A DNA stretch of 63,985 nucleotides, filler included, from Conidiobolus incongruus B7586 (lineage: Eukaryota), in NCBI GenBank assembly GCA_000697335.1. It is 10 parts of 10 records of this genome, joined end to end, with 100 filler letters (N's around TTAATTAATTAA, not from the genome) between each part and the next. Parts side by side here need not be neighbours in the genome. Positions count along the whole stretch, not along the records: positions 10,707 to 28,144 come from JNEM01006797.1; 9 more parts are not named here. The stretch is one strand, 5' to 3'. Positions 469-61,697 of the stretch are shown one piece after another; the first letter of the stretch is position 1, and the number at the start of each line of letters is the position of its first letter. The notes under the pieces are model-generated. The model was not told the origin of the DNA. It saw only the letters and a list, made by a program, of their open reading frames with translations, and did not search any database. Both the position numbers and the translations under genes were made by a program.

Positions 469-2953
469 TATTAATTAAAGTAATATTTATATTATTTAAA
501 TTTAATATTATTTTATGTAATATATTCTATATAATAAATATTTTTATTAAAATATTATTATTTTTAATTATAAATTATTAAAATTAAATTTCAAAATTGA
601 ATTTGTTAATTTGAAATAATTATAAAAATCATTATTAATCTTGAATTCATTTATTTTTCAAATTTTAATTGATTTTTTTAATGTAAATATATTAGTAATG
701 TGATGAAATTGTCAAAGTAATAATATATTTCTGTTAAAAAAACTGCATGCAAAAATTATATTTAACAATATTTTGAAAAATTGCCAAGTAAATTAAATGT
801 AATATCAATAGAATTAAGTTTATATACTGATTAAAATCTTAAGTAATAACCATATTATGCGACAAATCAGATATTTTCTTCAGAATGTATTTTTTATTTC
901 TAATATCAATAGTAACGTTCATGCAATTTCGAATCCATATAATCATAATACGTTTCATATAGTTCACGAAAGTAGATCAAAATTCGATAATTTTATCAAA
1001 TGCAAAAAGAATAAATTTAACAATATTATTGATTGAAAATGGCTTTAATTTATAAATTATGAAGATTTATTGATATAGAAGTATTATTTGAAGATGATAA
1101 ATATAATTGGAAAATTCTATTAAAATTTTAAATATATTGAATTTTTAAACACTAATTGATTTTAATGAATTGAGAATAAAGATATTTTTAAATTTTATTC
1201 ATTAAATTGAAATTAGAATTTTTGCAAAATAATTGAATATATGAATGAAGAGTTTAAAATGCAATTATTTGATTTTAATGATATACTCATATGTTTACAA
1301 TTATTAAAATGGCAACAATTCCTCAAACTATATTCATATCAATTTGACTTTATTGACATTTAATATCCTAGCATTTAATGGAAAAAGCGTACTTTATTTC
1401 TGCAATGCATAAGAAAGTATGAAGATGATTATTGTAATTAAATGTGATTTCATATACTCGAAAATATTTTCAATTTGATTTCAAATGAAATTATTTGATC
1501 AAATTTGTTAATTTCATTATTATTTTTAATTTCTGATATAAATGGCTTAAAAATTGGTTTAATATAGCAATTATTCCTTTTAAAATTACTTAATAATTAA
1601 TTTGAAAAAAACTGGTTATATCCATTTAAACTATCTAAACTATCGCTTTGAATTATTTGGTTAATAAACAAATAAATTGTTATTCCTACTTTAAATTAAA
1701 TTTTGATTATTTTGGTTATTAAATCATTCAACCAACACCAATCATTCGACCAGCTTAATCAGCAATTAATAATTCAATTCAATTGGTGATCCAAAAATTT
1801 TGAACTACATTGCCTAATGGCAATTAGACAACATCTTTAATGGAATACTTTATATCAACAAATACAATTTTAATGGTTAATGTAGTACTTAATTATTTAA
1901 AAATATTGCCAATTTCCAAAATTTCATCCAATCAAATTGTATACACTGAAATATGGTTTAACTTCAGATATACTATTAATTTCATAAACAGTTTATATTA
2001 ATTTCTTTGCTGAATCTTTTTACTCTAATCATATTATGTTTAAATTTAACTAAATGATGAATATAAAAATATTATCACTATTGTTCAGACTTGAATAACT
2101 ATATATAACGATCATTATTCACAATGATTGGGAAAATTTGAACTAATAGATTAGAAGCATAATTCTAAGTTTAATACCATTCAATTTTTTTCAATTGTTT
2201 TTATAAGCATATTTGTACATTGATAAATATGTAAAATAGACTTAATGAAGAAACTAATATTGTTATCAAAAAACGTGACCAATTTAATCAATATGATGGC
2301 TGAATCGAACACAATTAACAGCGGCGTCAATTGCATAATAAATAGGAGAGGTGGATTTAGATTTGATACATTTCGGTCAGTTACAAACGTTCACTAATTT
2401 CCAATTTCAATACAAATGTGGAGACTTCCAGAATGTTATCGGAATAGAGACAACTTGGCATATTTCATTATAAATTTCAATATTATACTATAATATTAAA
2501 AATAATAATTATAGAGTTAGAGAGAGGTTCGGATGATTATTTACAATTAAATCATCACACTAAAGGAATATTCACACTATACAATATATGAAAAAATTTC
2601 CGATTTATCAACTATAATAATCCATAATATCAACAATGCAATTGTGTAGTGGGATGAGTTAATTGAGTTAATCTTAAAAATTGATCGATTGAGGGTCAAT
2701 TGGGGTTTAGTCAATCTTATTGGTTAATGTCTCAAATTTAAATTCATCGATACTTGAGTATAAATACACCGCCTTGAGTTCATTACAGATATTTCCTCAT
2801 CTCGAGTTTGGGATTAGCGTCGTTAATTAATTATTTTCTTATTATATTATACACCTGATATTTTTATATTGTGTTCTTAATATTTGGGATAGGATTGGGT
2901 AACATCATATTATAATTATTTCTGGTTTATTTTAATCAACAATCAATATCAAA

Positions 2954-3649
2954 ATGAAGGTATCAACAGCTATAAATGTTGCATTGCTGATGCTGTTAAA
3001 TTGGAATGGCGTCAATGCCCAAAATGATAACAATAATAATAATAATAATAATAATAGACCAACTCGTATACCAGAAATCAACAACCCTCAACCTACTAGA
3101 CCACCGGCAATGCCAGTCACAGGGAATATCCCTCCACCCCCACCTCCTCCATCAGATTCACAGCAACGCCCATCATCACCTACTCAGGACAATCGTCCCT
3201 CCTCGCCACAAAACCAGGATAATCCAAGGCCAACACCTGAGCCATCCAGACAGGATTCATCACCCCCAAGGAACCAACAGAGGCCAAGACCCACACAATC
3301 TAACCCAGCACCCCAAAACCAACCCCAAAATGCAGCATCATCCCAAAACCAGAATCAACCGAACACCCAATCACAAGATCAAAGTCAAAATGACGATGCT
3401 CCACAAGATTTCTTTAGTGCGCCCATGGCACCGCCACCTCCCAAGTCCACGGAAGGAGACACCAATAAGACCGCAATCATTTCAGCGAGTGTAGCAGGCT
3501 CTCTACTCGTAGTAAGTTTAGCAGCTTTTCTCATCTACAGGCGTCACAAGCGCCAAGCCATGTGGAAAGACGAGGAAGCTGTAAAAAATGGTGGAGGTGA
3601 TATTTTCAAGAGCACTTTGGAGAGGTATCACAAGAATTCAGGACTCTAA
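2954..3649 (+). CDS. Single-pass type I membrane protein with signal peptide and Pro/Gln/Asn/Ser-rich ectodomain (mucin/cell-surface-sensor-like architecture)
   Basis: Intronless 231-aa ORF in a GC-richer island. Signal peptide MKVSTAINVALLMLLNWNGVNA|Q, low-complexity ectodomain, TM helix AIISASVAGSLLVVSLAAFLIY, stop-transfer RRHKR, short cytoplasmic tail. Confidence 0.88.
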   Translation: MKVSTAINVALLMLLNWNGVNAQNDNNNNNNNNNRPTRIPEINNPQPTRPPAMPVTGNIPPPPPPPSDSQQRPSSPTQDNRPSSPQNQDNPRPTPEPSRQDSSPPRNQQRPRPTQSNPAPQNQPQNAASSQNQNQPNTQSQDQSQNDDAPQDFFSAPMAPPPPKSTEGDTNKTAIISASVAGSLLVVSLAAFLIYRRHKRQAMWKDEEAVKNGGGDIFKSTLERYHKNSGL

Positions 3650-11831: not shown

Positions 11832-13150
11832 TTACTCTGTATTTTTAATAATGGGAATTTTTTGCAATTAAAAATAAATAAACATTTGAATATATGATAT
11901 ATAAAAATAAATATATAATATAAATTTAATAGTTTCCTTTATTATTAATAACTTTTTGCTATACTTTTGGTAAACTTCTAACACCTAAAAAACAGTTCTT
12001 TTTATTAAAGACTGAAATTTGATGTTTTACAAACCAATTAAATTTTCTTGCAGAAATTTTCTTTCCTGCAAGCTGGTTTTTTAATTGCCTAAAGCAATTA
12101 TAATCACATGGGTTATAATCAGGGGAATATACTAGATGTTGTAGTTCTTTCCAGTTATTTTTAATTAGAAAGTTTTTTACAGCTTTAAATTTATGTATTT
12201 TGTAATTATCATGCAAAATAATAGGTCTTCTCAAATTATATTAAGAACACCAATTAGAAATACTTTTATTTAAAAAAGCAATATATAGTTTACTATTAAT
12301 TGATTTTCCTTCAGGAACTAAATAAGAATAGCATATACTATTATAATCTATTGCAATAATTAACATTTGCTTATTAACAAAATGCTTATTTAAAGGGATT
12401 TATAGAGGGGGTTGATTTGGCTTAATCCAGCATTTTGATTTGTGTTTTAGTAAAGGATTATACATAAGGATCCAAGATTCATCAATTGTAATTATTTGCT
12501 GTAAAAGTTTAGGCTTCTAGTAATATTTTAATAGGTTTTGTTTAACAATAGCCACTCTAGCTTTTTTTAAGCTTTAGTTAAATTATAAGGTACCTATTTT
12601 GCATTTTTATTTATTAATTTTAGTTTAAACTTTAAAATATATCAAATACTTATAAGACTAATATTAGAGTGCTTAGATAATTCTCTAGCTGAAATAAAAG
12701 GGTGTTTTTCAATATATTTTTTCACTCTATTTACAATTGAAAGAGTAATAGTTGAAGTTGGTTTTCTAGATTTTAGCAGGTTTTAAATAGTTTCTCTTCT
12801 AGCTTTAAAGTAATTTACCCAGCAATAAATTGTTGATTTAGATAATGCTTCATTACCAAAAGCTGCTTGTAAATTTTGAATAATTTTAGAGGGTTTATGG
12901 TTAAGTTTTACTGATACCAAAATAAAAGACTTTTGATGATCACTATTTGGTTTAAGCATGATTAAATTAAACAACCAATTTTAAAAAGTTAATTTTTTAA
13001 TTAAAAAAACTAATATATATATAAATATATATATATATTAAAAATATATAATTTCCTATTAACTTTGTATATATTTATTCATTTCAAACTAATAATATGT
13101 TTGAAAAATTAGAAATTAAAAAATTTCCCATTATTTTAAATTCAAGGTAA
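11832..13150 (-). mobile_element. Full-length (~1.32 kb) mariner DD34D element, family A; transposase pseudogene (ATG at 12959 to stop near 11926)
   Basis: TA on both flanks, imperfect TIRs. Translation gives HTH region (EALSKSTIYCWVNYFK), K*VPYNL (WVPHEL-like), TIDESW, ILHDN and YSPDYNPCD, with 34 residues between the 2nd and 3rd Asp. Several in-frame stops. Confidence 0.95.
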
Positions 13151-17275: not shown

Positions 17276-18029
17276 TTAATGTTTAGCGTGCTTATCTTTA
17301 TAAGCTTCCACTCGTTTAAGATAATCCTCCAAAGCAGTTTGATATTGATCAGTGTAATTCTAATTATTAGCAAATTAGTATAAGGATGGTGAATAAATGG
17401 GTTAAGAGGAATTTGTATACCTGTTTTTCTGAATCAGACAATTCTTTCCAAAGTTTTGCTAAGAATTGAGCCTGCTCAGTTGCATTCTGAGGAATGCTAT
17501 GAGGATTCCTATCTCTGTAATCCTTACAGAATAAGAGATAGGACGAAAGGGGGCGCTTTGGGAAGTTTGGATCACGCTGGGCTTTATGTAACCTCTTCAA
17601 TGCTTTCTCCTTTTTGAGTTGTTTAGTCTCTTTCTTCTTTTGGATAAAATCCTTTAAACCTTCAGGTCCCAATTTGGCTTTAAAAGCTTCCATATCTTGA
17701 TTATACTTGGCGATTTCTTTTTGGTATTTAGAGACGTATGCCTGCTTTTTCTTTGGGTCTAAAGTTTGCCACTTGTCGCCCAAATCTTTCATAACTTCTT
17801 TCATGGTTGAGGCACCACCTTCAGAATCTTTCAAATTATCTTTAACGAAATTAGCAAATGAAGTAGCAGGCCTTTTGGGAGGTTCTAAACAATATCTAAA
17901 TTAATTTATCATATTAACATTTATGAATTAATTACTTAAAGCATCGTGAATAATAGATAAATTAGAAAATGAACGACTTAAAAGAGCAATCGATTTAGTA
18001 GTCGTTCTAGTAGAAACTAATTTCAACAT
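17276..18029 (-). CDS. Two-HMG-box protein with mitochondrial-type presequence (Abf2/TFAM-like nucleoid protein), ~213 aa; exons 18029-17936, 17884-17421, 17359-17276
   Basis: GT-AG splicing gives an open frame: MLKLVSTRTTTKSIALLSRSFSNLS (basic/hydroxylated, no acidic residues), box 1 PPKRPATSFANFVKD...LGDKWQTLDPKKKQAY, box 2 DPNFPKRPLSSYLLFCKD...LAKLWKELSDSEKQNY. Confidence 0.88.
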
Positions 18030-19014
18030 ATTATATATTTTATTGTTGAATTTAAATTATTAGTATAAAATGATTTTTTATGTTATTTATTGTTATCAGT
18101 TTACGTTTTACGGTTGATTTTTTCAATTTAGCTAGTTATATATTTCCCTGAGAGTTACAATTGAATTGGATAATTATGGGTTTTGAATTGATAAGTTTAA
18201 TCTATGAGAGTTTGATGACGTGTGATATATTATAATGATGTAGAAATGAATGAAATTCAAAATTTCAGTCATCAGAAGTCCTAATGTGGTCTGATCTTTT
18301 CAATATGAAATAAATTATGGTATCAGTATTACAAAATAATAAAATATAAACTATTCATATGAATGAATGGCAATATAGTTCAAATTAAAGTCTACCATTT
18401 TATTGGATTTTAGTTTTATAATATTTTTATTATAAAATAAAATAGGTGTATTAAATAAAAATATTTTTAATATCAGATATATAAATAATTGTATTAATTC
18501 TAATAATCACTATTATTCGATATGTAAAAGAGATTAGATATATTACAATATTGATTATAGTTATTGTTGTTATAAAATAATTAAAAAAAGAATAGAGATA
18601 ATTCAGAATAATCATACAATCTCATCTGTAGTTGATTAAAATTTTCACTTTAAACGTTAAAGATAACTTATATTATGAAAACAATCAAAATCGACTAGGA
18701 TTTTATTATTAAATAAATCTCCTACTCTATGATAAAGATTCAATATTAACTAAATTTCAAATTAATATTGATTGTAAATACATAAACCATTTATGATTGA
18801 ATTGAAATGTTTATATTAAACCAAAATACTTGACATTATTATTAATACAATCAATTGGTCAATGTGTATTACATGTTTTAAAATATCAAAGTTGAAGAAT
18901 GAATTTGAATCAGTTATTCAATATTCTCTCATATGAAAATATCTAAATTATATATTATCATCCAGACAATTTTATTTTGATTTAATAAATTTTGAACAAA
19001 ATTCAAAAAATGAA

Positions 19015-19519
19015 TTAACGTGACTTCGATTGGTGATCATGGAGTAATTTGTCATATTTCTAAAATGAATAGATTAGTAAATATACCTTGATTAAATGAT
19101 AAATCTTTACCTTTCTTTCTTCATCATTCAAATCATTCCAAGCCTTATGAAAATATTGCATCTCTTCTTCAGGTTCTGTAGGCAATTTATTATTGGATTT
19201 CTGCTTCAACTCCCGACAGAATAGTTCGAATGGCGTCTGAGGAGTAAACTTGCTAGATCCATACTCACTCTTATTGAATCTTTCTTCAGAATATGGAAAA
19301 CTTGCACCATCTTCTGATCTCTCTTCAAATCGGGTTTTGATCGACTTTTTAATGGTTTTTGGACCTGAATCCTCTATCATACATGTTATTTAAAGAATTG
19401 TTGATTATGAATTATAATTTGTTACCTGATAACTGTAGTAAATAAGTCATTTGAGAAAATGGTCGCTTGTTCAAATATTGATACAATCTAATATTACTAA
19501 TACACTTTTTGAGCAACAT
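19015..19519 (-). CDS. Divergent single-HMG-box protein with presequence-like N-terminus, ~133 aa; exons 19519-19426, 19373-19111, 19059-19015
   Basis: Spliced frame is open: MLLKKCISNIRLYQYLNKRPFSQ...TPQTPFELFCRELKQK...FHKAWNDLNDEERKKYDKL. Intron positions match the neighbouring HMG gene. Confidence 0.78.
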
Positions 19520-20810: not shown

Positions 20811-23800
20811 ATGGTCATTTACTCGGGTCCTAACTCCGACTATAATAAGAGAAGGCCTTATTATAATAGCAACTATTATTATAGCCCACACCCAAGTTAC
20901 CAAAGCTATTCAGGGTCACAGACTTATCCCCAACCGAATGACCCATATTCTCAGACTAATTACTACCAACAACAACAATACTATCCGACTTTAAACTACT
21001 ATCAACCATATTACTATCCCATAAGTAAATATTCAAATAATTTCAACAATACCATAATAATATCGTGACTTGAATACTGATCAAATTTGTTTGATAGATT
21101 ACAGCGGGTATACTGGACACTATAACCAGTCTTCGGTATGCCAGTCAACACAATACTCCATCACGTCAGGGGCTGTGAATGTAAGGTTTAATTTAGTACT
21201 ATTTAGCATTTATTATAACTAAAATTTATTACAGTTAACCAATCGCACTCTTAACAATTCCATCCAAACCCCCCACACCCCACAATCCACCAATCAGAGC
21301 CAAGAAACTATTTCACCCCCCAAGGATTCATCTCTCAATCTCTCGCAAAAAGGCTCCCTGAGCAATCATTTTCCCATTAAGAAGCCGAATGGATGGTCAG
21401 GCAAACTGTTTCAGCCTAAGAAGCTCGATAAATTCAAGTTTCAACTTGGACGTAATGTGTTCCAGTCACCTAGCCCTAATTCCCCCACCTTCATTGCACA
21501 GTCCAATCCAATTGAGGTTATTCCAGATCAATTGTCTGAAACTCAAACTCAAAATTTTGATCAAACAACAGTTGCTGAGCTTGCCACAGGAACTCAATCT
21601 CAAAATGAAAATGTTGCACAACCAGAAGAGGATAATCTAACTGAGCTAACGAATACTGAAAATCCTGATCAAGGAGCTAACGCTGAACAAATTGAAGTCA
21701 TTGACCAATCCAATGAATCTCTCCCCGAAGTGAACCCATCCGAAATTGTCGAAGATCCGCAAAGCTCCGAGGGTGAAGAAGTGCATGAAGTCATCCAGTA
21801 TGTCAAAGACTTCTCTCATCAGTCCTTAATACTCAATCAATATTTGACTCGTCATCAACTTAAGGAGATTTCTAAAATCAATGCAGACATCGATAATTCA
21901 AAATCTGGCGAATCTGACGATCACAGTGTCAACTCGGACTTTGGACAATCGAAACTACGCTTTGGACCACTTTCCAAGCTCAAGCAATCATTTACACCAG
22001 GCAGAATGGTGTGGGTCACTTGGGGAAAAGTAGATGCATATCCTGCAAAAGTATTGAAAACTAAGGCAACGAGAGTATTAATCAGATATGAAGGGTGGGG
22101 TGAACACCACGACGAATGGATTGAGATGAATTCCAGTCGTATATTGCTTCAAAAACCAATTCATGTAGAGATGAAAAGCGCTGATTTGGATCAATCCTAT
22201 GAACCTCCAAAAATCAACGATCAGATCATGGTAAAAGATCGCACAGGAATTTGGTGTGAAGCAATCATTTCGTCTATCAAGCAGGACAAGGTCATGATTA
22301 CTTACCCCTCCCAGCCACGCACTCGAGGTGAATGGATTCCTCTCAATTCTGACAGAATACGCTCCATACACGATTTTGAGAACATTGATCAGTTGAAAGC
22401 TACAGAGCTTCCCCCCATTCCAACTAAACCCCTGAAAACTAAATCTACTAAAAAAAAGATCATCAAGTTCAATCAATTGAAAAAGGTCGAGAAGGCTTTG
22501 GAGCATTTGGAGTATATTTCTGACATACCCGTGGATATTGAAAATGACAATACACAAGAACCAACCGAAAGCAAATACTGGCATATTTATTGTAACATCT
22601 GCCACATTGTTCTCAAACAATATCGTTACTATTGTACACATTGTGAAACTCCCTCCGAAGACTCGAGTTTTGATCTCTGTATCTGGTGTTATCAAAATTC
22701 ATTCCCTAGAGATCATCCTCATCCACCTCAATCTTTCGCTGTGGACTGTCTAATTACTGAAGAAATCATCGATTCTTTCGCTCCTAATAAGGTAAAAGAT
22801 TCTCTGATTTTAGCTCCATTTGTAAAAGATACATTCTACAATGGTCCTAGTTTAGAAGCCAGCTTCTGTAATCCAATTTGTGCACTATGCCATGATATCA
22901 GTTGCAACGATATCACAGGACCCTTCATCAATGAAAAACCGTTCTTGTTCACATCTCTGTCAACTCGAGTGAATGGAGTGAAAGCTGCCCACAAGAAGAA
23001 TATCTTCTGGATGCATCAGAATTGCGCTATGGTATCTCCACAGGTCATTGTCTTCCATCTCAAGGATCCAGAAAAGGAAGTTTGGTACAATCTCGACAAA
23101 ACAGTATATCGTGCTAGCAAGATGAAATGCAGTAAATGTCGAATGATGGGAGCGACTGTTGGATGTTTCAATTCCAAATGCCCCAGAATCTACCACTTGA
23201 CATGCTGTGGCAAAAATCCCAAACTTTTCCTCCAGGGCGCTATCTTCTACTGTCCCAAGCACGAAGAGATCACTAATAAAACCCAGCATTACGAGGAGCA
23301 CTACCACTGCGACAACTGTAAGAAGAGCTTACCGTGCCCCAATCCCAGAGGCCCTTTCCCCGATCTTTCACCTGACGAGTGGTACACCTGTCAAGCTTGC
23401 GTGGAAGAGAATTTTTTTTCGGGCTTTGACCTCTGTACTGAATGCTTTGTGCATAATTTCAAATCTATCAAGCATCATCACAGATCGAGTAGATTTATCA
23501 GAACCACCAAAAACCAATTAGAAGTTTTATTGGATGAACTGGCCAATAACAAGATAGCAAGTTTGAAGCATAAAAAGAATAAAGCCAAATCGGAATCCAA
23601 TGCTAGGACCAGACAGAGCGAGGAGCCCAACGATTCAAATAAAGAGGAGCAAGCACCACCTAAGAAGCGCAAAATCGTCAAAAAGATTATTCAATACCAG
23701 CCCAATGTCCATTGCTCGTACTGCTGGTCCACCACCTCGACCATCTGGCGTCGTGGATATATGGGCGTTCTATTATGCTCCACCTGTTTCATGAATACGT

Positions 23801-26413
23801 CCGCCGAAAACAATTCTACCGCCGTCAATCCCAACACTGAGGAAGACCCTGAAGAGATCATCATTGACGTAGTGAACGACTCGCCATCACCTCAAGAGAA
23901 ATTCGGGTACCACGGAGATTACGAAGACTACATCCACCAACCTTATCATACCCGCAACCTACCGCAATTGAGTGCCCTTGCAGCGGACATACCCAAACTG
24001 AATCACAATGCTTTGGTGAACCGAGCAATCCATCTCGAAACTTATGGTCCCACCATCTACCAAGCGTTCTCTTTAGATTTTAGGTCAACCTATTACGATA
24101 TTCCTGGATCAGCTCCCAGATGTAAGTATTTTTAATATTTTAAAAAATTTTTGATTAATTTTTGTTAGGGGCTTCTCACTCAGGATCGGATTATCACGGT
24201 AATTAGTCATACATTCTTATTTTATATTGATATTAATTAGAGTTTAGGCACTTGGTTACCACAAACTGTACGCAGGTAAATAATAATTGATTCATTATAT
24301 AATTTTACAATATTAAACAATTGATATAGAGCTATTACACGATACACCAAAGAGGGTGATATGGTCTTAAGTAATTTTTTGGGACGAGGTAACTTCAATA
24401 ATTTGGAATTTGTATATTGGAATTAATTGGAATTAGGTACGGATGCTATAGAGTGTTTTTTGCTAAAGAGAAGGTAATTTTATTGTATTAATTTGAGTTT
24501 TGTCTTATTAATAAGTTTTTAGGTGTATTGGTATCGATATTAACCCTGTAAAACATTTACATTCAATTAAATGATATAATTTCTAACAAATTCCATTAGG
24601 TAGCTGTTGCTCTATCCCAAAAGAACATCTCTTTTGCACTTCCGCCATCCCTGCTGGCGAATTCGGAATCTAAGTACCATCGCCCCACCATCATTCAAGC
24701 TGATGCTCGCAACATGTTCTCCATCCTGGCTAACGAAAGTGTGGCTCACGTCCTTTCACATCCTCCCTACAAGGATTGCGTCGAGTATTCCAACAATATC
24801 GACGGCGATCTTTCAAAGTTTGCTAACAATCAGGAATTTTGCAAGGAGATGCAGAAGGTGGTGAATGAAACTTGGAGGTATATATTACATTTATTACATA
24901 TATGTGTGGTGATTTATTAATGTTTTTTTTGTAGAGTATTGAAAATGGGAGGACGATGTACATTAGGAATAGGTGACAATCGCGATCAATGTTTCTACCA
25001 ACCTGTTGCATTTGAAGTCATCCAACTCTACATGAATACTGGTTTTCAAGTGGAAGAAATTGTAAATCAATTAAAACACTCCAATATCATGATTATTAAT
25101 TTTATGATAGATTGTGAAACGTCAACGGCAATGTCGAGCCTTCGGTCTCGGAACTTTTTTATGTGTTAAATATGATTTCTTAATGTTTACTCACGAATTT
25201 ATTATGACGGTTAGAAAGACTCCAATGACGAGATCCATGAGTAGAGCTATGAAAAAAAGTAATACTGTCATCAATAATGTAAGAATATGGCTAACTTTAT
25301 GATAGATTTCAAACCAGCCAAAGACATTTCTAGATGGAAACACATGGTAGGCTACCGCATCAAAGTTAGACAGATTCCAGACTGCCCTATCGAGCGCAAA
25401 TCCGTCATCATGGGCTCCGTATGGGTATTCCGTCCCAATCATAAGTATTCGTTCCCTGGCCTCTGTGTCTCCAGAATGGTAAACATTTTTCAAAATATTT
25501 TTCAAGTATTTAACAATTTTTAGGTGGAGAGATTTGGAAGAAATAATACGAATTGGGAAGAAGTGATATTAAGATTTAAAAAATCTAATGTAATTTTTAT
25601 TTTATATACATATAGTATTATTGTATTAATAGTATTTTAGACTAATGATGATAGCAATGTAGCAGAAGGTAAATTAACCATCAATTTTTGCAATGTTAGT
25701 TTCTAATTGGAATTTTTTAGATCCTACTATAATTGTACCTGATCCTGAGCCTATCGACTCTCATTATGAGAAAATGCGTCAAGTTAGAATTAAATCTAAC
25801 AAGAGAAAGTTGCTATCTTTGGTAATTTGCTCAATCATTATATAATTTTCATATGGTTTACATCTGAATAGGGACTAATCTCTGAATTGAGTGACGATCG
25901 CTCTGAAGACATAATCCATCACGACAAAATGATGAAAATGAAAGCGCTGCCCTCTGCCCCCATCTCCCTCATTGTCGTGCCTCACGTCCCCAACCACAAG
26001 CTCGATTGCGAAATTATTCCTTTTTACAGACGCGCCATCATCGAAATGACGCTGTACGCACTCCAAACTCTGCCACCCTCTGGAATGTTTATCGTTGGGG
26101 TCCAAGACTACCGCATGTCAGAAGGCACTCTCATTCCCTTGAGTATCCTGGTGTACCAGGATATCAGCGAAATCATCCGCAAGAGCGATCACATGAAACT
26201 GAAGGAATTGGTAGTGTGTGTTCCGCAAGGCTACAGTTGTGACCGGACGAAAGAGTATACAAAAATCCCTAAACAACCCTGCGTCGTTGGTGAAAAATTG
26301 CAAGATGTGAAGCATTTACCCATTGTTCACGTAAGTTGAATCATTTTTTATATAATTTTAGTTATTAATTTTTGATATAGGCTATCTATATGATCTTTAT
26401 GAAATTGAAATAA
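20811..26413 (+). CDS. Chromatin-reader-fused N6-adenine/N4-cytosine-type DNA methyltransferase, ~1591 aa, 17 exons: 20811-21024, 21098-21180, 21235-24121, 24169-24198, 24248-24275, 24330-24388, 24437-24473, 24523-24547, 24600-24877, 24935-25061, 25111-25258, 25306-25478, 25524-25589, 25641-25668, 25721-25821, 25872-26330, 26381-26413
   Basis: All 16 introns are GT-AG with consistent phases; total 4776 nt. Domains: chromo-barrel x2 (RYEGWGEHHDEWI; TYPSQPRTRGEWI), ZZ (CNIC...YYCTHC...FDLCIWC), extended PHD (CALC...HQNC...CSKC...GC...C...HLTC...CPKH), ZZ (CDNC...CQAC...FDLCTEC), NLS PPKKRK, GATA-type Cx2Cx17Cx2C, MTase (NFLGRGT, GIDINP, QADAR, SHPPY), then a degenerate second MTase copy. Confidence 0.9.
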
Positions 26414-56461: not shown

Positions 56462-57872
56462 ATGGAGTCAACAATGAACTCAGTAAAATTGGCAGCTCCT
56501 ACTGGTAATTCGCATTAATTTGATTAATGAAAAATGAAATTAACCATTGTTGTTTAGTGCCTCTTGTCGGTACAATTATCACTATCTTGAGTGCTGCTAC
56601 AGCATTTATATTAATTTTGTTGCGATTATTAGAGCATATTAGTTATTATTCAATGGTAATTGATTACTTTTATTGGTGTATCAACACATTACTTATTTAC
56701 TTTAAATATAGTCAAATCAACAAAAATGCCAATTAAGAATTCTATTCCTACTAATAGGACTCAATATTCTACCGATTTTAGACTATCATTGGATGTTTTT
56801 CCATAGTATTTACCAATTTATACAGACTTTGATCGAGTGTTCAATTCTTGTGCATTTGATCAATTTTCTCATTCAAATTATCAAGGATCAACAACCGAAG
56901 GACTCGCCAAATCTGACCAACTACCTGGACCACGAGTATATTAATCCTCCAATATGGGCACAGATGGCATCGTGGTTCCAGTACAAGAAGCCCATAAGAA
57001 TGCCATTCCCATTTCGAAATGTGAGGCTGCGACCGGGAAAGCAGCGTTTCTTTTTTTGGACACTCACCTTCATCTTTCAGTATCCTATACTCCGCAGCAT
57101 ACTTAGCTGTATACAACTGATTCTCAATTTGGCACAGCCTAACTCTTATAAATTTCAATTTGTTATCCAGAACTCGGCACCTTTCGCATTCTACTGTGTC
57201 GAACTCGCCAGTCTGATCGTGTGTTTCTACTTCAGTAGTCTTTTCTTCAAAGTGATCCGCTCGGACCTCATGTTCCCACTGGTGGGGGCGAGTATCAATC
57301 CTAGTACTCAGTTCTGCGCCACGTTCACTTACCTATTCATCGTCTCTGGACAAACCATCATGATCACAATTATCAATCAATTCCGTCCAATCGAAGTGAT
57401 GCCGTTATTGGATCACACATCCGACGCTATCGTCCTATGTGCTCTATTGGAAAGTGTAGAAATCGCCACATTCACAGTCATTACAGTAATCACTCTTCGC
57501 GTAATCGACAAAGGTATACCACCCTACTACCGCGGCGGCTTCCAATACCCACCTCGATACCTTGCACTTTTAGATACGTTTAATATTTGGAAAGACATTA
57601 AGGAAATTTTTAGGATTTCTAAACAATTCTTTAAATTCCTTTGGTATAATCGTAATTTTGAAAAATTGAAAATTTCTGATAAGTTTAATATTTCTAAATC
57701 AGAATCTTGTGAGAGATTGAGATACACAAATGATTGTAATGATTTTAAGACTGCTTCAAATATAATTGGGACTTTGGCAAGACCGAAGTCAGTGAAATTT
57801 CCTGGAAGGTCTAAACCTACATTTAAGGAGAATGATGATGACAAGGTGGGTACAATTGAATTGATAGAGTGA
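56462..57872 (+). CDS. Multi-pass membrane protein, OST-alpha/TMEM184 (organic solute transporter)-like, ~433 aa; exons 56462-56504, 56558-56655, 56712-57872
   Basis: GT-AG splicing joins the two ORF-track pieces in frame. About 7 hydrophobic segments; LLEHISYYSMSNQQKCQLRILFL resembles the family HLxxYxxPxxQRxIxRIL motif; also FQYPILR, LLESVE and ALLDTFNIWKDIKE. Confidence 0.72.
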
Positions 57873-59581: not shown

Positions 59582-60125
59582 TTAGTGTAGAAATTAAGTA
59601 ATGGCACAATTTTAAAATTAAAATTAAACAAATAAATTAATAAATAATATATAAAATTTAATGAATAATATAAAATTAATAGCCTCCTTTATTATTAATA
59701 ACTCTTTTCCATACCTTTGGTAAGCTTCTAATACCTAAAAAACAGTTCTTTTTATTAAGGACTGAAATTTGATGTTTCACAAACCAATTTAATTTGTTTG
59801 CAGGAATTTTTTTTCCTGTAAGCTGTTTTTTTAATTGTCTAAAATAATTATAATCACATGGATTATAATCAGGTGAATATACTAGATGTGGTAACTCCCT
59901 CCAATTTTTTTTATATAAAAAATCTTTTACAGCTTTAGCTTTATATATTTTGCAATTATCATGCAAAATAATAAGTGTCTTTAATTTATATTGAGAACAC
60001 CATTTAAAAATTGTTTTATTTAAAAAAGTAATATATAACTTACTATTAATTAATTTTCCTTGAGGTATTAAATAAAAAGACCATATACTATTATAATCCA
60101 TTACAACAATTAACATTCACTTATA
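59582..60125 (-). mobile_element. 3' half of mariner subfamily B copy with an open 146-aa catalytic C-terminus, interrupted by Tc1
   Basis: ORF 59676-60116 contains ILHDNCK...YSPDYNPCD...VWKRVINNKGGY; terminus TA|ttagtgtagaaattaagtaatggcacaatttt. Confidence 0.92.
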
Positions 60126-61062: not shown

Positions 61063-61597
61063 TTACCTTGAATTTGAAATAATGGGAAATTTTTTAATTT
61101 CTGATTTTTCAAAAATATTATTAGTTTGAAATGAATAAATATATACAAAGTTGATAGGAAATTATATATTTTTAATATATATATATATTAGTTTTTTGAT
61201 TAAAAAATTAACTTTTTAAAATTGGTTGTTTAATTTAATCATGCTTAAACCAAATAGTGATCATCAAAAGTCTTTTATTTTGGTATCAGTAAAACTTAAC
61301 CATAAACCCTCTAAAATTATTTAAAATTTACAAGCAGCTTTTGGTAATAAAGTATTATCTAAATCAACAATTTATTGCTGGGTAAATTACTTTAAAGCTA
61401 AGAGAGAAACTATTCAAAACCTGCTAAAATCTGGAAAACTAACTTTAACTGTCACTCTTTCAATTGTAAATAAAGTGAAAAAATATATTGAAAAGCACCT
61501 TTTTATTTCAGTCAGAGAATTATCTAAGCACTTTAATATTAGTTTTACAAGTATTTTATATATTTTAAAGTTTAAACTAAAATTAATAAATAAAAAT
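61063..61597 (+). mobile_element. 5' half of mariner family A copy, lightly mutated
   Basis: TA|ttaccttgaatttgaaataatggg; ATG at 61241 gives MLKPNSDHQKSFILVSVKLNHKPSKII*NLQ...; runs into a gap. Confidence 0.93.
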
Positions 61598-61697
61598 NNN
61601 NNNNNNNNNNNNNNNNNNNNNNNNNNNNNNNNNNNNNNNNNTTAATTAATTAANNNNNNNNNNNNNNNNNNNNNNNNNNNNNNNNNNNNNNNNNNNN

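Follow-up and report, generated by a model that had tools for sequence, protein, structure and literature searches.

The gene at 20811..26413 (+ strand) of the window, by which we mean the whole 63,985-nucleotide stretch of Conidiobolus incongruus B7586 DNA that was analyzed, encodes a DpnA-like amino-methyltransferase of Group-1 Clade 4, a family already known from early-diverging fungi, and its C-terminal part is a second, catalytically dead methyltransferase (MTase) copy that is homologous to the intact first domain. The dead copy is probably a tethered subunit that rebuilds a dimer within one chain, and the tandem was probably acquired whole from prokaryotes. The copy with its inserted helix is not a discovery: it was described in 2016 (Iyer, Zhang and Aravind, PMC4738411). 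The present analysis adds the half-domain anatomy of the copy, a prokaryotic tandem with its likely whole import, a modelled pseudo-two-fold pair and a holozoan member.

In the mechanism that we propose, the copy would serve as the non-catalytic second subunit of the kind of dimer that related DNA amino-methyltransferases need. Domain 1 alone would bind SAM and methylate an exocyclic amine, most likely N6 of adenine in DNA that is opened or single-stranded; the copy would stabilize domain 1 and complete the nucleic-acid-binding surface; the N-terminal chromo, PHD, ZZ and GATA domains would place the enzyme on chromatin; and the inserted KRI helix, a presumed eukaryotic addition at the site of the lost SAM lobe, may give the enzyme one more basic contact with chromatin or DNA.

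The methylase gene and its published family

The features of the gene, all on the + strand, are:
20811..26413, +: whole gene (spliced model: 17 exons, 1591 amino acids, one terminal stop)
21235..24121, +: long third exon, chromatin-reader domains (Pfam hits)
24069..25227, +: domain 1, catalytically intact amino-MTase, nine exons, unpermuted (motif I, then motif IV)
24376..24438, +: motif I, FLGRG (SAM binding), with a 48-nt intron inside
24759..24770, +: motif IV, HPPY (catalytic)
25306..26413, +: dead second MTase copy, the gene's last six exons (25306-25478, 25524-25589, 25641-25668, 25721-25821, 25872-26330, 26381-26413; profile matches and the AlphaFold2 model of an ortholog)
25410..25541, +: MGSVWVF strand and FPGLCVSRMVERFGR helix, equivalents of the N-terminal strand and WLPQTVRRAITRYTK helix of domain 1
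25762..25877, +: KRI helix, 22 residues, seven K/R and one D/E, with a 50-nt intron inside
25965..25991, +: strand 4, degenerate motif IV (VPHVP)
26058..26410, +: strands 5-7 and the helix after strand 5, predicted interface with domain 1

The DNA of the window is AT-rich and eukaryotic, with short introns and an intergenic GC content of 11-20%; its genes and their best relatives indicate an early-diverging fungus. In the spliced model the methylase gene is interrupted by 16 GT-AG introns of 45-73 nt, and its MTase part can be aligned over its whole length with proteins of Lunasporangiospora, Coemansia and Endogone; exons 1-2 (20811-21024 and 21098-21180) are placed by their splice sites alone. 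From the N to the C terminus the protein consists of a low-complexity segment, two chromo/Tudor-like domains, a ZZ domain, a PHD pair, a second ZZ domain, a GATA-type finger, the active MTase and the dead copy with its KRI helix. Pfam recognizes zf-HC5HC2H (E 1.1e-9), zf-HC5HC2H_2 and MBT (E 3.3e-5) on the long third exon; the ZZ and GATA assignments rest on Cys patterns together with Pfam matches to orthologs. Single window exons from both MTase domains gave no Pfam match (four of four scanned), and PF01555 is matched by 44 of 57 aligned relatives. Motif I (FLGRG, residues 1097-1101 of the spliced model) precedes motif IV (HPPY, residues 1175-1178), which is retained in 36 of the 38 eukaryotic members that are long enough to score. 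Domain 1 is 63-67% identical to its best database orthologs and falls within the eukaryotic clade of a quick unrooted domain-1 tree; the corresponding identity of the dead copy is 40-48%.

Group-1 Clade 4 was described as 'fungal N6-DNA MTases' with a second, inactive MTase domain that carries a KRI helix, the examples being Rhizophagus GLOINDRAFT_316719, Rhizopus RO3G_02774 and Spizellomyces Spun1000004719 (PMC4738411). The sequence features of Clade 4 are present here: the unpermuted domain, the chromo, ZZ, PHD and GATA domains, the inactive C-terminal MTase and the KRI helix. The Rhizopus, Mucor and Rhizophagus rows of the published supplement, read by eye, match the window protein motif by motif; Clade 4 members are listed with the same architecture, and nothing excludes membership. 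There are differences of detail: the window protein has two chromo-like domains, and a DNMT3-like finger was not seen in it, unlike the Clade 4 description, and the KRI helix is said in PMC4738411 to lie 'between strands 3 and 4', whereas strands 2-3 are missing from the ortholog model examined here. The published range, 'only basal fungi', also differs from ours, in which Chromosphaera perkinsii contributes a protein with this tandem and a KRI helix. The named members come from chytrids, Zoopagomycota, Mucoromycota, Paramicrosporidium and Chromosphaera perkinsii; because the last is among them, the family reaches beyond the fungi.

In the protein of this holozoan (P0050), PHD fingers accompany the two MTase domains and the KRI helix; the same holds for P0051, whose prefix, 'Clim', presumably stands for Corallochytrium limacisporum. 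A divergent eukaryote-like protein of 683 residues, P0086, has a PHD-like finger, an HPPY domain and C-terminal motifs like those of strands 5-7, with no KRI helix; it is matched by neither copy profile and forms a long branch beside the eukaryotic clade.

MetB was considered as the identity of the window protein and rejected, since MetB belongs to PF02384, a different family; no PF02384 match occurs in the aligned relatives among the 25 of 40 families listed, or on P0004. MetB, like this enzyme, is a bacteria-derived amino-MTase of early-diverging fungi; unlike this one, it is a type I/IIL-like N6_Mtase (PF02384) and the asymmetric 6mA writer of Mucor (PMC11258239).

The target of domain 1 and the known writers of 6mA

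Methylation of adenine N6 in single-stranded DNA, as by DpnA, was predicted for the clade in PMC4738411. No assay of any Clade 4 enzyme was found in the literature searched, and the fungal 6mA literature that was found holds no test of this one; a 2026 review (PMC13297926) does not list it in the passages considered. In fungal mutants the mark has been traced to other enzymes. Knockouts in Mucor, in the portion of PMC11258239 that reports them, assign 70-75% of 6mA and the asymmetric motif to MetB and all symmetric sites to MTA1c. In Rhizopus, according to the relevant part of PMC12019607, MTA1c alone deposits 6mA, and R. microsporus is included in the Clade 4 list of PMC4738411. Across eukaryotes, robust 6mA tracks AMT1 (PMC12695648). 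Because knockouts credit MetB and MTA1c, though R. microsporus has a Clade 4 member, this enzyme is unlikely to be a writer of bulk genomic 6mA; if it does mark DNA, it probably does so sparsely or conditionally.

The earlier note had proposed that the active/inactive pair could impose strand asymmetry. With one active site per unit, any single binding event would mark one strand. Genome-wide asymmetry imposed by this enzyme is not supported, however, because the asymmetric motif of Mucor belongs to MetB, the 6mA of Rhizopus to MTA1c, and robust 6mA tracks AMT1.

A related question is whether the target is adenine in DNA at all. The enzyme might retain the anatomy described here with a substrate that has shifted in eukaryotes to RNA or to N4 of cytosine, the copy supporting that activity instead. 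The target base is not fixed by HPPY, the 6mA of fungi is already explained by MTA1c and MetB, repeated shifts of such enzymes to RNA are on record (Iyer et al.), and the best fold matches of domain 1 are Trm11 and TrmN, tRNA m2G methylases. Against this, the enzyme is fused to chromo, PHD, ZZ and GATA domains, DpnII and other nucleases adjoin its prokaryotic relatives, and its sequence neighbors in the PDB are the DNA methylases TTHA0409, M.MboIIA, N4CMT and CcrM. Such a shift of target is therefore judged unlikely, and an adenine methylase acting on DNA, with the copy as its tethered partner, is the reading that is followed below.

The dead copy and its predicted pairing with domain 1

Homology of the two domains is not apparent from pairwise comparison (the best E in BLASTP of domain 1 against domain 2 is 17, not significant); it emerges from profiles. 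By hhalign, the eukaryotic second domains (37 rows) match eukaryotic first domains (39 rows) weakly (P 27.9%, E 6.4e-4) and single-domain prokaryotic relatives better (P 92.4%, E 5.1e-7); when eukaryotic and prokaryotic rows are pooled, domain 2 (59 rows) matches domain 1 (77 rows) over 113 columns with P 96.9% and E 1.8e-10, and P rises to 98.5% in global alignment. A self-HMM alignment had been suggested as the check on the claim that the C-terminus parallels the active domain motif by motif, and it comes out in favor of that claim. The motifs quoted for it are all present, and in a sliding profile test each of the five pairings ranks first of ~240 domain 1 registers, in collinear order (z 3.2-5.2). 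A sixth block, MGSVWVF, also ranks first with the pooled profile and is placed elsewhere with the eukaryote-only profile, which leaves five of six blocks collinear; in the pooled test this strand ranks first of 246 registers and the FPGLCVSRMVERFGR helix first of 238. The motif IV block is the weakest: a one-residue shift is needed to align both His residues (SLIVVPHVP and VAHVLSHPP), and hhalign places this strand differently from the sliding test. The dead copy is homologous to domain 1.

What survives of the fold is less than was supposed. A profile-free HMMER search with the Coemansia ortholog returned 2073 matches, and from the best 150 of these 43 eukaryotic proteins, 22 prokaryotic tandems and 17 prokaryotic single-domain proteins were picked by eye. 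None of the 43 eukaryotic second domains has FxGxG, whose absence had been pointed out for the window protein, or the catalytic [DNSH]PP[YFW]; the His of VPHVP remains in 33 of the 37 eukaryotic members aligned. The copy retains an N-terminal strand, a helix, strand 1 and then strands 4-7. As modelled in an ortholog, the second domain is what remains of a Rossmann class I MTase fold, a half-domain from which motif I, strands 2-3 and the SAM-binding helices have been lost. Thus, of the suggestion that the C-terminus is an MTase copy with a helical insert, the MTase kinship and the helix stand, and the whole Rossmann domain does not. The inactivity of the copy and the presence of the KRI helix are borne out, as they had been in print since PMC4738411.

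The KRI helix (residues 573-591 in the ortholog model) follows a variable acidic linker and occupies the site of the lost SAM-binding lobe, before strand 4. Its YExxR......N pattern is found in 39 of the 43 eukaryotic second domains and in none of the 22 prokaryotic tandems, and it is as conserved as the core of the copy. A search with the KRI region recovered two family members among 11 candidates, and no Pfam family covering the region appears among the 25 of 40 families listed. This helix is presumably kin to the KRI helices of unrelated chromatin proteins, as described by Iyer et al.; theirs was the sole account of KRI found.

The case for pairing comes from structure prediction on an ortholog. 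All models of the pair were made on the Linderina ortholog P0010 rather than on the window protein, with 57 rows as AlphaFold2 input; the single-chain model (pTM 0.81, mean pLDDT 77) has five core strands in its second domain, 1, 4, 5, 6 and 7. Folded as two chains, domains 1 and 2 of P0010 score 0.82 against 0.22 for the best of three controls, on a scale whose mark 51 of 78 solved complexes and 2 of 108 mismatched pairs attain (for eukaryotes, 39 of 65 and 2 of 126). The two chains belong to a single protein and resemble beta-class dimers of known structure, and the passing score may reflect that likeness. At least 72% of contacts are common to the runs, and partner pLDDT is at least 64. The contacts are pseudo-symmetric: each half contributes its N-terminal strand, the Asp-Arg loop and helix that follow strand 5, strand 6 itself and the segment preceding strand 7, with D372/D673, F384/M686, L397-V402/L703-V708 and F423-H428/H743-H748 as equivalent residues. 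Interface positions of the copy, which lie partly within core strands that are conserved in any case, are more conserved than the rest (0.72 versus 0.49 in eukaryotes, 0.58 versus 0.34 in prokaryotes). The copy is thus predicted to pack on domain 1 as a dimer mimic, through equivalent elements of both halves, and the intramolecular pseudo-dimer that was proposed from the window alone is upheld as a model.

Other structural searches add less. Residues 85-358 of the ortholog P0006 match N6_N4_Mtase clusters of predicted models in the Atlas with TM 0.50-0.57, the top two clusters being ~500-residue bacterial proteins; a single-sequence AlphaFold2 model of the P0006 second domain has pLDDT 31.7. 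The match lists of PDB searches (Foldseek, VIA-align) were taken up by domain 1. An Atlas feature search with the window's last long exon placed 22 of 30 matches in PF01555 clusters (scores ~0.90, 149-154 shared features), and is a lead only.

The copy might instead be a mere scaffold, there to display the KRI helix or to dock partner proteins, with no part in substrate handling by domain 1. Loss of the SAM lobe and of the catalytic motif fits such a role, as does a KRI helix as conserved as the core; yet the copy is retained in prokaryotic tandems, none of whose 22 examples has the helix, and its conserved positions gather at the predicted contact with domain 1. A pure scaffold is quite unlikely on these grounds.

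The predicted dimer mimic has ready parallels. M.MboIIA, CcrM, M.BceJIV, N4CMT, METTL3-METTL14 and MTA1-MTA9 belong to the same structural group as this protein, and the interface predicted here, through strands 6-7 and the helix that follows strand 5, may resemble that of those dimers. The M.BceJIV dimer is formed via a helix and strands (PMC11380664, in its account of the interface); by reading of the residue numbering in that description, its elements appear to correspond to the predicted interface. The subunits of beta-class enzymes divide labor (PMC7544214 and PMC10406627, in the parts that treat the dimers), a division shown for the beta-class motif order, whereas domain 1 here has the order I-IV. 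More generally, beta-class and MT-A70 dimers are permuted (motif IV before I) and consist of two chains with full domains; this protein has the order I-IV in a single chain, with a half-domain as partner. In METTL3-METTL14 and MTA1-MTA9 an active subunit is joined to an inactive one, as predicted here. Of the two analogies drawn in the earlier note, that with METTL3-METTL14 is accordingly apt (same structural group, dimer-type interface); that with DNMT3A-DNMT3L, a C5 system, is loose.

Prokaryotic tandem methylases and the origin of the pair

The active/dead tandem is not a fungal invention; it is present in many bacteria and archaea. Among the best 150 of the 2073 matches, the nearest prokaryotic proteins have an HPPY domain followed by a C-terminal dead copy in 420-550 residues (P0075, P0079/P0154), and one prokaryotic cluster includes a Halobacteriota archaeon; the bacterial homologs in the portion of the PMC4738411 supplement list that was covered have 364 residues or fewer and are single-domain. 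In a genome scan, the best 80 of 593 matches (loci L002-L081) spread over many bacterial phyla and archaea; 78 of these 80 loci have an HPPY ORF, and 71 of the 78 also have the dead copy.

The prokaryotic copy matches its own domain 1 with P 97.5% and E 5.5e-12 (hhalign). Measured from the first helix to strand 5, it is ~70 residues shorter (median 69.5 versus 139), and the shortened lobe is the one missing from the eukaryotic copy model. The prokaryotic tandems therefore share with the fungal enzyme an active HPPY domain, then a dead copy without the SAM lobe, and the motifs of strands 5-7. They differ in having no KRI helix or acidic linker, and in an N-terminal part that is zinc-finger- or HTH-like instead of a set of chromatin readers. 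They are also part of restriction-modification-like cassettes, beside DpnII-type and PD-(D/E)xK nucleases: the 110 ORFs that adjoin tandem loci include BLAST-linked groups of 26, 16, 10 and 7, mostly directly downstream, and the one member tested of the 16-ORF group is DpnII (E 6e-12), that of the 7-ORF group PDDEXK_11. The 26-ORF group (a 185-residue protein) and the 10-ORF group (a 400-residue protein) matched no Pfam or NCBIfam family. The downstream partners of the tandem methylases appear interchangeable (e.g., L003:5554-6111 and L002:6134-7342).

The eukaryotic copy is far closer to the prokaryotic copy (P 99.2%, E 1.6e-19) than to its own domain 1 (E 6.4e-4), and the prokaryotic-copy profile matches 35 of 43 eukaryotic C-terminal parts and 2 of 43 eukaryotic first domains. 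Prokaryotes thus have the tandem without KRI, and the fungal copy resembles their dead copy more than it resembles the fungal first domain. The pseudo-dimer therefore probably came over in one piece, its source being a restriction-modification methylase of prokaryotes and its arrival falling around or ahead of the time when fungi arose. As reconstructed from these comparisons, one duplication in prokaryotes would have been followed by transfer of the whole tandem and by later insertion of the linker and the KRI helix. In a joint tree (60 rows, 99 columns) all 26 copies, which are long branches, lie on one side of a branch with SH-aLRT 99; in the quick unrooted domain-1 tree, the prokaryotic tandems are mixed with single-domain forms, and the donor is not identified. 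That the eukaryotic copy came from its own duplication after transfer, converging on the prokaryotic tandem, is highly improbable: an AU test does not reject it (p 0.118) and the intermixed, unrooted domain-1 tree leaves room for it, but profile scores favor the prokaryotic copy as closer kin, both copies have lost strands 2-3, and the joint tree groups all copies.

Taking import of the whole tandem as the preferred account, one may go further, tentatively and with more doubt than conviction, and see in this family a third DNA amino-methyltransferase of early opisthokonts. An active/dead pseudo-dimer would have been imported ready-made from GATC-type restriction-modification cassettes before the split of fungi and holozoans and then joined to histone readers; it would write sparse, chromatin-guided 6mA or 4mC, on one strand or in opened DNA, that methylome models based on MTA1c and MetB miss, and the KRI helix would couple activity to nucleosomes. 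The family is still an orphan, intact in chytrids, Zoopagomycota, Mucoromycota and at least one holozoan. The prokaryotic tandems (~500 residues, intronless, beside their own nucleases) are simple stand-ins for work on the substrate, the motif and what the dead half does, and they would show the minimal single-chain form of the active/inactive division of labor of METTL3-METTL14.

Viral contigs and a phage collection yielded no relatives, and a plasmid collection one, a single-domain protein. This relative (L001:3001-3657), with 31% identity to domain 1, lies in a 2.1-Mb Fusobacterium record that is filed as a plasmid and is probably a chromosome.

The window contains several other features. 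A low-complexity ORF (2936-3649, + strand), with no Pfam match, has a signal-like start, a Pro/Gln-rich middle and one membrane segment near its C-terminus. Remnants of IS630/Tc1-mariner-type transposases are seen on the - strand at 11959-12240, 59676-60116 (DDE_3, E 6e-6) and 61325-61645, and an ORF of the organic solute transporter Ost-alpha family (PF03619, E 6.5e-11) lies at 56712-57872 (+ strand). An HMG-box gene (17367-19389, - strand; PF00505 in two stretches, E 6e-19) is divergent from the methylase gene.
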